Shown in pieces: positions 2,911-63,756 of a DNA stretch of 64,000 nucleotides. The first letter of the stretch is position 1. Every line of letters starts with the position of its first letter. Source of the DNA: a virus (Duplodnaviria > Caudoviricetes); the IMG/VR virus record IMGVR_UViG_3300036770_002726, positions 541-64,540 of that record. One strand, written 5' to 3'. The notes below the pieces were generated by a model, which worked only from the letters and a program-made list of their open reading frames with translations, searched no databases and had not been told where the DNA came from. Both the position numbers and the translations under genes were made by a program.

Positions 2911-3264
2911 ATGATTACAATTCAAATTTTAACTTGGTTCATTTTATCCTATGGACTTATGAACATTATGGTTTATGGAAGTATATTCCAAGGACTAAGA
3001 GATTTCTTCAAAAATATGGGTGATAATCCACATACCCCACTTAGATTTTTATTTGAGTTTATTAGTGGGGTATTATCCTGTCCGATGTGTTTCAGTACTT
3101 GGAGTGGGTTCTTTTTAGGTTTGGTAGTGTTTTCTCCAATACATACACTATTTGGAATACCTATATGGGGTTCTTGGTTCTTTGATGGTATTTTATCATC
3201 AGGAGCAGTATGGGCGATTAATGCAATTGTTGAATATTATGAAGAAAATAGACCATCTAAATGA
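2911..3264 (+). CDS. Membrane protein (DUF1360-like, CxxC)
   Basis: Hydrophobic segments; LSCPMCFSTW motif. Confidence 0.55.
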   Translation: MITIQILTWFILSYGLMNIMVYGSIFQGLRDFFKNMGDNPHTPLRFLFEFISGVLSCPMCFSTWSGFFLGLVVFSPIHTLFGIPIWGSWFFDGILSSGAVWAINAIVEYYEENRPSK

Positions 3265-3896
3265 AAAAAGTTTTAGAGTTATTTGCTGGTAGTCGTTCTA
3301 TTGGTAAAGCCGCAGAATCACTTGGAATGGAAGTATTTTCAGTTGATTGGGAACAATATGAGGGGATAAATTTATCAAAAGATATTGGTGAATTAACAAT
3401 GGAAGATGTTCCATTCACCCCTGATATTGTTTGGGCTTCACCAGATTGTACAACATATACAATTGCGGCAATATCACATCACAGAAACGGAACTGAACCC
3501 AAAAGTGAATATGCAAAAAAATGTGATATGGTTAATCAACATTTTATTTCATTGATAAAACAATGGTTAACCATTAATCCAAATATGGTATTCTTTATTG
3601 AAAATCCAAGGGGTATGTTAAGAAAGATGCCTTGGATGTTAGAATTCACAAGACATACAATATGGTATTGCAAATATGGTGATGAAAGAGCCAAACCAAC
3701 TGATATATGGACAAATAGTACAACTTGGATACCAAGACCTGTTTGCAAGAATGGTAATACTGAATGTCATCACCAACCAGCACCAAGGGGAAGTAAAACT
3801 GGAACTCAAGGTAGAAAAGGAAGTTATGAAAGAAGTAAAATACCTGAAAAACTTTGTATGGAAATATTAACGTCCGATGATAAACAATCGTTTTAA
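3261..3896 (+). CDS. DNA cytosine-C5 methyltransferase-like protein
   Basis: VLELFAG (motif I), SPDC (motif IV), IENP (motif VI). Confidence 0.75.
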   Translation: MKKVLELFAGSRSIGKAAESLGMEVFSVDWEQYEGINLSKDIGELTMEDVPFTPDIVWASPDCTTYTIAAISHHRNGTEPKSEYAKKCDMVNQHFISLIKQWLTINPNMVFFIENPRGMLRKMPWMLEFTRHTIWYCKYGDERAKPTDIWTNSTTWIPRPVCKNGNTECHHQPAPRGSKTGTQGRKGSYERSKIPEKLCMEILTSDDKQSF

Positions 3897-3958
3897 TGTT
3901 GTTTATCATTTCTTAGGTTTTGTCATTAATTTGTTTTACCTTTGTAAAAAATATAAAT

Positions 3959-4177
3959 ATGGAAAGTAAAGGACATTTTTGTTATGGATGTAATGAGTAT
4001 TTTCATGGCTCACGATTTGGTATTACAACACACAAAGGTTGTAAGGGTAAAAAGAGTTTAGGTATTTGTGTGGATAGTAAAGAATGGGGTGAATACCATC
4101 CATATAATTTAGAAGAAAAAAGTAAATGGGAGTTGATTCAAATTATACAAAAACTCTCAAAACAAATTAATGATTGA
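3959..4177 (+). CDS. Small Cys/His-containing hypothetical protein
   Basis: ATG 3959 follows a TACCTTTG -7 element at 3937-3944; CYGC motif. Confidence 0.5.
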   Translation: MESKGHFCYGCNEYFHGSRFGITTHKGCKGKKSLGICVDSKEWGEYHPYNLEEKSKWELIQIIQKLSKQIND

Positions 4178-4180
4178 ACC

Positions 4181-4268
4181 TAATGGTACTTGTGTATATG
4201 CCGTGCAAGTACAAAGATTTATTAACGGCTATAATTTTCAAAGCATGGCATATACACAATGTTATGCA
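4181..4268. repeat. attC-like hairpin (17-bp arms 4190-4206 / 4243-4259) ending in GTTATGCA
   Basis: TTGTGTATATGCCGTGC vs GCATGGCATATACACAA: 16/17 complementary. Confidence 0.75.
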
Positions 4269-4296
4269 GCGAAGCGAACAGTTTAAAATTTTTATT

Positions 4297-4482
4297 ATGG
4301 AAAGTTACTCAGAACGAATAGACAGAGAAATTGCGGAAACCGAAAAAATGTTTCCTGATGTTAAAAAAATAGTGGATGAAATTTCAAGGATTAAAAATAT
4401 GTCGAATATGGAATTTGACTATGACAGCGAAAGGAAACATTTGATGTACGAAGCTGTTAAGAAAATTTTAAATTGTGCATAA
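4297..4482 (+). CDS. Small hypothetical protein in a cassette-like unit
   Basis: Flanked by GTTATGCA (4261) and TGCATAAC (4476-4483); the stop codon lies inside TAAC. Confidence 0.6.
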   Translation: MESYSERIDREIAETEKMFPDVKKIVDEISRIKNMSNMEFDYDSERKHLMYEAVKKILNCA

Positions 4483-4571
4483 CTAGAATATATACGTAAG
4501 TCGCCATAACCGATTAGTACTCAATCACTTAAAAGACCCAACTATAAGGATTCACAAACAAAAACTGAATT

Positions 4572-5204
4572 ATGAAAGTATTGAATTTATATGCTGGTAT
4601 TGGTGGGAATAGAAAATATTGGGAAGATGTTGAAGTAACAGCGGTTGAATATAATGAAGAAATCGCAAATGTATATCAACATTTTTTCCCCAATGATAAT
4701 GTTATTGTTGATGATGCCCACGAATATCTTGCAAAGAATTGGAGAAACTTTGATTTTATATGGAGCAGTCCCCCTTGTCAAAGTCATAGCAAAGTTAGGA
4801 TGATGGCAAGCAAGGGTGGAAGTTATGATTCAGTAATGCCAGATATGAAATTATGGGCGGAGATAATCTTCTTACAAAACTTCACAAAGAATACCAATAT
4901 AAAGTTTGTTGTTGAGAATGTTAAACCCTATTATGAACCATTTGTTAAACCATCATTGAAATTGGGGAGACATTTATTTTGGACAAACTTTGATATTCCA
5001 ATTATTGATATTAAGGATGGTTTGACCCATAATGAGAGGGGAAGTTCAGAGAAGGGTTATTTTGATTTGAGGGTGTTTAAATTAAAACATAGGAAAGACC
5101 AAATTATTAGAAATTGTGTTGATCCCAATGTTGGAAAATATATATTTGACATTGTTAAAAAAAATAATTATAATGGAGAAAAAATTGGTGAGATTTCCCA
5201 ATGA
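4572..5204 (+). CDS. DNA cytosine-C5 methyltransferase
   Basis: LYAGIGG, SPPCQ and ENV motifs. Confidence 0.85.
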   Translation: MKVLNLYAGIGGNRKYWEDVEVTAVEYNEEIANVYQHFFPNDNVIVDDAHEYLAKNWRNFDFIWSSPPCQSHSKVRMMASKGGSYDSVMPDMKLWAEIIFLQNFTKNTNIKFVVENVKPYYEPFVKPSLKLGRHLFWTNFDIPIIDIKDGLTHNERGSSEKGYFDLRVFKLKHRKDQIIRNCVDPNVGKYIFDIVKKNNYNGEKIGEISQ

Positions 5205-12586: not shown

Positions 12587-12850
12587 ATGGTAAATAGAAA
12601 ACTGAACGCCTTTTTTGCCTATGTGTTGTTAGCAGTAGTGTTTTCTTCTTGTGATGTAGAAACTAAATTCCCTAATAGCCAATCAAAATTTGTAGTAAAA
12701 AGAATTCAAACTAACAAAACAAAAGGAACTAGTCTTTACTTAGTCGAGCCTATTGATAAAATGGATTTGAATATGAAAGGAACTTGGTTTGTGGATAGCG
12801 TTGGTAGGTTCAATGCTGGCGATACGCTGTCTTTTCAACATTACCGCTAA
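12587..12850 (+). CDS. Putative lipoprotein in a cassette-like unit
   Basis: Hydrophobic signal + FSSC lipobox; GTTAGCAGTAGTG (12628) / CATTACCGCTAAC (12839) inverted repeat. Confidence 0.6.
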   Translation: MVNRKLNAFFAYVLLAVVFSSCDVETKFPNSQSKFVVKRIQTNKTKGTSLYLVEPIDKMDLNMKGTWFVDSVGRFNAGDTLSFQHYR

Positions 12851-12884
12851 CTAGAATATATACACACCTCAATACAACTCACCC
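12848..12884 (+). repeat. 37-bp direct repeat TAACTARAATATATACACACCTCAAWACAACTCACCC, copy 1
   Basis: 35/37 identical to 13430-13466; first 16 nt also at 4480-4495. Confidence 0.9.
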
Positions 12885-13429: not shown

Positions 13430-13466
13430 TAACTAAAATATATACACACCTCAAAACAACTCACCC
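13430..13466 (+). repeat. 37-bp direct repeat, copy 2
   Basis: See 12848; preceded by the perfect inverted repeat GTTATGTTTAA/TTAAACATAAC. Confidence 0.9.
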
Positions 13467-63704: not shown

Positions 63705-63756
63705 TATAACGGTTGGGTATATGTGTTCGTTTTAATGACACATATTCTTTGTTATA
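63705..63756. repeat. Short attC-like hairpin
   Basis: TATAAC-GGTTG-GGTATATGTGT...ACACATATTC-TTT-GTTATA. Confidence 0.65.

Follow-up and report, generated by a model that had tools for sequence, protein, structure and literature searches.

Integrons are the textbook gene-capture device of bacteria, and recombination at folded single-stranded sites has been thought to need the insertion that is found in their integrase, IntI. Many large phages show this cassette logic too, namely sites that fold, box pairs private to each cassette, a docking site and orphan arrays; in them it stands next to a plain enzyme of the Xer-like kind, and the cargo is inverted. The locus analysed here lies in a 64,000-nt stretch of viral DNA (Duplodnaviria; Caudoviricetes), hereafter the window, which covers positions 541 to 64,540 of the IMG/VR virus record IMGVR_UViG_3300036770_002726 (64.5 kb, rated 22% complete, the CheckV estimate for the whole genome being about 290 kb). 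With a probability that we put at roughly 0.7, window positions 4184-4483 are one mobile gene cassette (cassette B) of an integron-like system in phages of Bacteroidota-type hosts. It is made up of a recombination site that folds (spacer and 17-bp hairpin), the core box GTTATGCA, a gene for 61 aa and, matching the first box, TGCATAA|C. A second cassette (cassette A, 3872-4183) precedes it, and both are parked at an orphan docking motif between two methyltransferase genes (methyltransferases 1 and 2, in that order). The system seems to use a short Xer-type recombinase in place of the classical integron integrase.

Besides integrons, two kinds of mobile gene unit invite comparison. PeSL (promoter early stem-loop) cassettes of T4-type phages are small early genes in hyperplastic regions, flanked by repeated stem-loop elements thought to shuffle genes, the proposed process being homologous recombination between the repeats. 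The phage arrays described here differ from them in that they mostly share only a 4-nt core, carry a private box pair for each cassette and have a tyrosine recombinase alongside. The pdif sites of plasmids are short, double-stranded and dif-like and are used by host XerC/XerD; pdif modules are not known to have a long variable hairpin, a box pair specific to the cassette or an enzyme of their own beside the array. The excerpts considered for pdif modules of Acinetobacter plasmids (PMC7399989) describe features that our arrays share, namely single genes bracketed by inverted sites and moved by Xer-family tyrosine recombinases.

Integrons and attC-site clusters that have no integron integrase (CALINs) come closer. 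Compared with the sections of Cury et al. (2016, PMC4889954) used here, the phage arrays share one-gene cassettes bounded by imperfect hairpins whose cores are AAC/GTT, complementarity of the core extensions across the cassette (which marks a crossover inside the core), a position 5' of a gene for a tyrosine recombinase, next to which lies a separate docking site, enzyme-less orphan arrays, insertion at a secondary ..TTAAC site and subfamilies of near-identical sites; on the same sections, the likeness is especially to chromosomal integron arrays with homogeneous attC sites. The folded strand is in both cases the sense strand of the recombinase gene (the integron rule being background that portions of Qi et al. 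2023, PMC9892861, also give). In contrast to integrons, the phage-array enzyme is Xer-like, measures 265-267 aa, lacks the IntI insertion and is encoded co-directionally with its cargo, while the site precedes its open reading frame (ORF) where attC trails; in 57 of 58 loci the array lies upstream of the recombinase gene and in its direction. It is also the coding strand that folds, the boxes, at 10-25 bp, are long and sometimes bulged, and the spacers are asymmetric, with 5 nt on one side and 1-3 nt on the other.

In the print sources covered, the only precedent found was the phage CALINs of Qi et al. (2023, Front Microbiol, PMC9892861), whose available sections report 17 CALINs in 10,705 phage genomes. 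Among these phages, P12002L resembles the present case: it is virulent, its host is a flavobacterium, and attC-type sites lie around its methyltransferase genes. The site grammar set out below was found in it on the gene strand at 38936-38879, 38090-38035 and 32700-32290. The same sections differ from our account in treating the sites as bacterial integron components recognised by IntI1, and neither a docking motif nor the box-pair signature is described in them; the text of the paper contains neither Xer nor Bacteroidetes nor Flavobacteria (0 occurrences each). A literature search, whose coverage stopped short of subscription journals, returned no description of a Xer-like recombinase with such arrays.

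Cassette B in the window and elsewhere

The cassette B site (4185-4260, + strand) comprises the spacer GGTAC, a 17-bp hairpin (4190-4206 with 4243-4259) closed by a 36-nt loop, and T4260; 16 of the 17 arm positions are Watson-Crick pairs and the remaining one is G.T. Upstream of the hairpin lie TAATGGT (4181-4187) and CCTAAT (4179-4184), behind the stop codon of ORF A (4175-4177). The 5' box (4261-4293, +) begins with GTTATGCA (4261-4268) and continues through a bulge at 4268-4277, which contains GCGAAGC, into a second arm at 4278-4293. ORF B (4297-4482, +; 61 aa, no assigned function) follows, and its stop codon TAA (4480-4482) falls inside TGCATAAC (4476-4483), with which the 3' box (4461-4483, +) ends. 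The hairpin region 4180-4268 thus has the attC-type order of CTAAT, GGTAC, the 17-bp hairpin, T and GTTATGCA, with inverse core and core at its ends, and the bases adjoining the cores pair across the cassette, as in integrons, over 23 bp with a bulge. Within the window, the hairpin sequence occurs once.

In this AT-rich window, 8-bp inverted repeats of the form GTTAnnnn/nnnnTAAC within 3 kb are no commoner than expected by chance (48 against 47.2 in shuffles), and such a repeat was rejected as stand-alone evidence. The longer repeat, which pairs 4261-4293 with 4461-4483 around ORF B (7 + 16 bp, 10-nt bulge), reaches -20.4 kcal/mol, a value matched by 0 of 500 shuffles and by 0 of 2921 other 32-nt windows of the next 3 kb. 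An initial annotation of this locus, made from its letters alone, had named a hairpin, an ORF, a box and a TAAC end, and all of these were present where it had placed them; the complementary TAAC end that it described carries weight as part of the significant 23-bp interrupted repeat and none as an 8-bp repeat alone. Its suggestion to fold the bottom strand was also followed: as DNA, the strand opposite the hairpin region gave -15.2 (z -2.11; 5 of 200 shuffles equally good), and 4170-4300 folded as RNA gave -31.9 kcal/mol (z -2.46; 1 of 200 shuffles equally good).

On the evidence of sequence comparison, the cassette B unit was shown in at least three contexts. Window positions 4180-4483 recurred with 0 differences between other flanks in a metagenome contig (X6 record 28), the site travelling with ORF B. 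At locus L280, positions 4342-4494 were present at 98% identity and were followed by 53 nt and then by a 267-aa recombinase gene; a contig of run X3 departed from the window after 4494 into a leader like that of L280. The unit drawn in the initial annotation is thus nearly the mapped mobile unit, identical elsewhere over 4180-4483 and with its 3' part beside a recombinase gene. The docking segment 4480-4508 was preceded by different cassettes in X5 and X6 and continued in X6 into methyltransferase 2 (the X5 joint is weak, with 24 nt on one side and a depth of 2.4), and the leader 4496-4571 also occurred with another cassette upstream (X6 record 29). Lack of coverage over parts of the stretch in the Logan contigs of runs X3-X6 is uninformative. 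The metagenome scan for ORF B relatives yielded one locus only.

Boundaries of such units were visible at methyltransferase 2, whose relatives in other phages are themselves cassettes. Together with its upstream hairpin, this cassette stands after six different upstream cassettes, and homology begins at the hairpin arm, ahead of which lie TAAC and a spacer that varies in part; this assigns the hairpin to the ORF that follows it. Taken with the left insertion junction, the breakpoints fit the interval from TAA to ~2 nt past TAAC (G|TT on the other strand), which is an interval and not a mapped point.

The scan with methyltransferase 2, in which 80 loci were examined, also recovered the empty-site alleles that the initial annotation had recommended looking for. 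All five loci with 97-99% identity in both methyltransferases (L033-L037) lack 3875-4568 and read ..ATATTAAC ATCAAC ATT ATG.., the stop of gene 1 overlapping the start of gene 2; the same empty joint (3871|ATCAAC|4569) was present in a Logan contig of metagenome run X6. These relatives either lost the block or never had it. An insertion between two methyltransferase genes had been proposed, and its absence from relatives bears this out, although the inserted DNA (3872-4568) is larger than had been drawn and contains two cassettes, the docking motif and a leader. It starts exactly after TTAAC.

A mosaic of the moron type would explain these data by homologous or illegitimate recombination at repeated flanks (cf. 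the T4-type promoter stem-loop repeats) with no site-specific enzyme. The flanks of cassette A, which are 82-100% identical across many loci around differing ORFs, and the X3 joint at 3953/4159 would suffice for homologous exchange, and the right junction of the insertion does not lie at a core site. Breakpoints nevertheless cluster at TAAC and the arrays are associated with a recombinase; at most cassettes, moreover, homologous recombination is without a substrate, because neighbours share only the 4-nt core and a loose spacer and have private box pairs. We regard a mosaic of this type as very unlikely.

Several observations concern ORF B itself. Neither ORF B nor ORF A had a Pfam or PHROG match. 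Six ORF B homologues of 61-94 aa all share its end point. A further homologue with 60% identity (L113 3001-3402, in a 291-kb phage contig) forms the N-terminal part of a 134-aa ORF without cassette flanks; ORF B as a truncated version of such a gene was considered and rejected, since in 6 of 6 other homologues the end coincides with that of ORF B. The frame of ORF B is open backwards through the entire hairpin to a TTG at 4174, and gene callers gave alternative forms of 94 aa (P0002) or starting at the ATG inside GTTATGCA (P0003), which are probably artefacts of this open frame.

Site grammar in phage arrays

Read on the gene strand, the arrays follow one grammar: x'TAAC, a spacer of ~5 nt, a variable hairpin, 1-3 nt and GTTAx, where x and x' are complementary across each ORF. 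The window locus shows all of these elements (TAAC, spacer, hairpin, GTTAx and paired x/x'). In the array of the 462-kb phage LR756500.1, each small ORF is preceded by a long variable hairpin and T-GTTAx and is followed by x'TAAC, again with x and x' complementary. A symmetric finder (TAAC, 2-7 nt, a stem with 10 or more Watson-Crick pairs, 0-3 nt, GTTA) run over 697 kb of fetched phage DNA returned 68 sites on the gene strand and 6 on the other strand, compared with 2 in shuffles. The further family members for which the initial annotation had called are thus abundant, both in the window and elsewhere. The spacer measured 5 nt in 43 of 65 unique sites, and site lengths clustered at 84-91 and 113-133 nt.

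Pairing was also assessed in sites chosen solely by the 11-nt loop TCGTTTTAATG (window 3888-3898), with no selection for pairing. Among 87 distinct instances with 24 different stems, 80 were paired at 9 or more of 10 positions, and the mean pairing was 9.48, compared with 4.99 for mismatched arms of different instances. Pairing of the boxes reached at least 4 bp beyond the core in 32 of 47 adjacent pairs; for same-site pairs the count was 2 of 65 and for random pairs 198 of 5000. A G.T pair recurred at position 7. Such pairing across the ORF is the signature to be expected if crossovers fall inside a conserved core. Stems contained 112 G.T as opposed to 34 A.C combinations, from which it follows that the coding strand is the folding strand.

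The strand bias can equally be read at the RNA level, with hairpins and box pairing acting in mRNA (processing, stability, termination or translation) and the polymorphism arising from ordinary recombination. The placement of the sites on the coding strand, the excess of G.T (G.U) over A.C, the conserved G.T in the box extension and the better folding of the window hairpin as + strand RNA all agree with such a role, as do long sites with a start codon in the hairpin loop from which the gene reads through the 3' arm (L082 3950-4594). It leaves unexplained, however, units that move block-wise with breakpoints at TAAC, the empty alleles, the 'empty' units without an ORF, and a dedicated tyrosine recombinase 50-70 nt behind the last TAAC in most arrays. 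No Rfam family matched, either: at gathering scores Rfam gave 0 matches in the window, and ARAGORN predicted 0 genes there, so that the cassette B hairpin is not a known RNA or tRNA. A terminator was rejected too, no T run following the hairpin. We consider an exclusively RNA-level explanation very unlikely, while a secondary RNA role of the sites beside their DNA role is possible.

Variants of the grammar were observed at several places. A short family site at 63707-63754 of the window consists of TTTATAAC, GGTTGG, a 10-bp hairpin with the loop TCGTTTTAATG, TTT and GTTATATT. The 'empty' units in L308, L281, L147, L283 and L164 consist of a GTTAx box, the 11-nt TCGTTTTAATG and a matching x'TAAC with no ORF between them; some stand directly before the docking motif, and the same 11-nt loop closes both hairpins and empty cassettes. 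Forms of the methyltransferase 2 cassette with a start codon in the hairpin loop occur in L082 (3950-4594) and in L056, L059, L061, L062 and L072, and in these forms the coding sequence of the first ~17 residues (MSNEAQNGNFAKPMLAPV) runs through the loop, the 3' arm and the GTTA box. In P12002L (L199, 32700-32480, - strand), the annotated gene gp41 lies wholly inside the loop of a site hairpin, and the box and leader after it (GTTACCTG ACGAAGTGAACAGTTTAAAAT) resemble window 4261-4288 of cassette B, bulge included.

Docking motif, linked recombinase and proposed mechanism

Behind the last cassette of the window lies a terminal docking (attI-like) motif of the TAAC + TA..ATATATA type (4480-4495, +; TAAC followed by TAGAATATATAC at 4484-4495). 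In most arrays, a recombinase gene starts 50-70 nt behind this motif; here there is none, and the methyltransferase 2 gene occupies its place, separated from the motif by a leader (4496-4571, +) that belongs to the DNA missing from the empty alleles. A loose version, TAAC(3-6 nt)TATA within 130 nt upstream of a recombinase start, was found at 74 of 78 loci compared with 79 of 3259 (2.4%) other TAACs. The window holds the docking motif three times in near-identical form, at 4480, 12848 and 13430; the latter two (12848-12863 and 13430-13445) read TAAC TAGAATATATAC and TAAC TAAAATATATAC, both followed by a shared leader ACACCTCAA.ACAACTCACCC. A phage promoter behind TAAC was considered and dropped, because the 462-kb phage contains no more than 2 exact copies of CTGCAGGTATATA, each of them within the array.

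The array in G002 illustrates the complete arrangement: it ends with a methyltransferase cassette, followed by CTTATAAC TATTATATATAC, ~50 nt and a gene for a 265-aa tyrosine recombinase. Array-linked recombinases measure 265-267 aa and match PF00589 (1e-35), and the one in G002 also has a SAM-like N-domain; their best profile scores were to XerA, XerC and XerD models. They remained below the IntI cut-offs (140-163 bits vs 265 for TIGR02249) and aligned to IntI4 in two pieces, ~48 residues short, but to XerC-like and XerD structures in one piece. Among the best 80 viral relatives of the recombinase, 58 had at least 2 kb of upstream sequence, and in 57 of these it contains sites on the same strand; in total, 368 sites lay upstream at the viral loci, compared with 7 downstream and 14 on the opposite strand. 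Cargo genes were co-directional with the recombinase gene.

The presence of two close sites (3868-3915 and 4180-4268) in a 64.5-kb record (22% complete) with no tyrosine recombinase is what defines a CALIN. A classical integron remnant, in which the phage picked up bacterial cassettes with ordinary attC sites moved by a host IntI, would account for the attC-like architecture (AAC/GTT cores, imperfect hairpin and cassette-specific core extensions). According to the parts of Qi et al. 2023 drawn on here (PMC9892861), IntegronFinder/HattCI found phage CALINs, one of them with methyltransferases in Polaribacter phage P12002L, and IntI1 recombined attC2 of P12002L with attI1; sites of the present family were found in that phage, and that attC2 may be one of them. 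Such a remnant fits poorly with the recombinase that stands beside the arrays (57 of 58 phage loci), which has 265-267 aa, falls below the IntI cut-offs and fits IntI4 in two pieces only (~48 residues missing) and XerC-like/XerD in one, and also with a site that precedes its ORF. Cargo and recombinase are co-directional, whereas most integron cassettes face the other way from intI (Cury et al. 2016, PMC4889954, in the sections used). The lack of the IntI insertion and the inverted cargo orientation mean that this is not a classical integron, and we hold a CALIN of the ordinary kind to be unlikely.

Two statements of the initial annotation need qualification accordingly. The attC likeness extends to the AAC/GTT cores but not to the position of the hairpin, which leads its ORF rather than trailing it, and the capture is integron-like except that the linked enzyme is a short Xer-like recombinase and not IntI, none being present in the window record at all and the array-linked one lacking the IntI insertion. 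Its statement that the window has no integrase stood: no PF00589 recombinase was found in the 64.5-kb record, nor in the 291-kb relative-context record, nor in intact form in LR756500.1. Of the enzymes that it had suggested searching for elsewhere, a tyrosine recombinase was located beside the 98% identical copy in L280, while no HUH (Y1) transposase PF01797 was found in the window record or in LR756500.1, so that nothing there points to an IS200/IS605-type element. LR756500.1 does contain a fragment of a Xer-like recombinase (L360, 48542-48802, - strand; residues 37-125, 38% identity, two TAA stops), far from its array, and the 291-kb phage record that includes L113 (G001) has an intact IS200/IS605-type Y1 transposase gene at 662-1018, - strand (PF01797, 1e-38).

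Short recombinases with ~40% identity were found at 80 genome (chromosomal) loci, many in Flavobacteriaceae. Arrays of at least 3 relaxed AAC/GTT sites stand beside some of them (for instance in Croceivirga, Polaribacter and Oceanihabitans), mostly beyond the 3' end of the recombinase gene and on the other strand, and many contigs stop at the gene. A link of the chromosomal recombinases to arrays is partly supported.

The preferred reading of 4184-4483 as an integron-like cassette suggests the following course of events. Between two sites, the recombinase would make a crossover within TAA|C or immediately behind it (G|TT on the opposite strand) and so free a circle. There the two boxes would come together, and with the hairpin they would make up a single long site, folded on the coding strand; the circle could then be re-inserted at a docking motif. 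Neither the record nor its known relatives show the enzyme, and it would therefore act in trans, supplied perhaps by a co-infecting phage, by the host or by the unsequenced 78% of this genome. A bolder proposal, to which we give somewhat less than even odds, is that a giant phage without a recombinase of its own keeps orphan docking motifs (4480, 12848, 13430) that collect cassettes from a pool shared by phages and Bacteroidota hosts through a trans-acting Xer-like enzyme. This enzyme would recombine folded single-stranded sites without the IntI-specific helix, and the whole would amount to a second integron, built independently, that acts on the coding strand and exchanges anti-defence genes, methyltransferases among them.

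A number of findings weigh against the integron-like reading. The junction at GTT/AAC that the initial annotation had expected is precise on the left, at TTAAC, while the right one (..CTGA|ATTATG) has no TAAC/GTTA core and the ATCAAC of the empty allele is missing, so that no single clean site-specific event accounts for the 694-bp difference as a whole; of the two junctions, only the left one has a site-specific look. The cores of cassette A are degenerate here (CTTA, TAAT), and it may for that reason have lost its mobility. An RNA structure would account equally well for the G.T bias of the coding strand. The link between recombinase and sites is positional only, and the layout beside the ~40% identical chromosomal recombinases is different and mixed. 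No recombinase was seen in contigs of close relatives among the best 80 + 80 matches, in scans that are weak in that they need shared 8-residue words. Nor was a recombination product found as a parent-product pair, the comparisons being between different genomes or Logan contigs of depth 2.4-12.9.

The locus is a compact, testable example, with an empty allele and a cassette in three contexts, one of them beside the enzyme. Cassette cargo includes DNA methyltransferases, which are classic anti-restriction genes. If correct, the integron-like reading would bear on the turnover of accessory genes in large phages, on the passage of cassettes between phages and hosts, and on what a tyrosine recombinase minimally needs in order to act on folded DNA.

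Cassette A and the flanking methyltransferase genes

Cassette A begins behind the TAAC core that forms the left junction of the insertion (3868-3871, +), a core also present in the empty alleles. Its site (3872-3915, +) has the spacer GTCCG, an 11-bp hairpin (3877-3887 with 3899-3909) with the loop TCGTTTTAATG, TT and the core CTTA (3912-3915). The family consensus of this core is GTTA, and 3912 C>G was seen in 7 and 6 metagenome contigs. Between the 5' inverted repeat (R'-like box, 3912-3937, +) and the ATG at 3959 lies a conserved leader; at this ATG the Cys-rich ORF A (3959-4177, +; 72 aa, no assigned function) starts, and the 3' inverted repeat (R''-like box, 4159-4184, +) ends in CCTAAT. 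The box pair extends over 25 nt, 88% complementary to 4159-4183, with a duplex energy of -26.6 kcal/mol.

Copies of the site with its TAAC (3868-3915) that are 90-98% identical occur in dozens of recombinase loci, up to 5 per locus. The wider 5' flank (3868-3973) is 82-95% identical across loci around differing ORFs, the 462-kb phage LR756500.1 matches 3879-3970 at 92.6%, and copies of the 3' box that are 100% identical stand behind other ORFs in L121, L315, L167 and L159. Judged by these alignments, the cassette A sites are a homogeneous subfamily with a 25-bp box. An ORF A homologue with 84% amino-acid identity in L114 has no cassette flanks; ~500 nt downstream of it, L114 3722-3736 reads TAACGTCCGATGATA, identical to window 3868-3882.

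The two flanking genes lie on the same strand as the cassettes. DNA methyltransferase 1 (3261-3896, +; 211 aa) matches PHROG 757 (2.2e-30), and its final 25 nt (3872-3896) are inserted DNA; in relatives it ends ..ILTSTL, with a stop overlapping the start of the next gene. DNA (cytosine-5) methyltransferase 2 (4572-5204, +; 210 aa) matches PF00145 (2.2e-11) and also PHROG 363. In a close relative (L036 2846-3786), methyltransferase 1 carries an in-frame insertion of 311 aa that begins with Cys, ends in His-Asn followed by Cys and contains a LAGLIDADG-like block, and which, by these features, looks like an intein.

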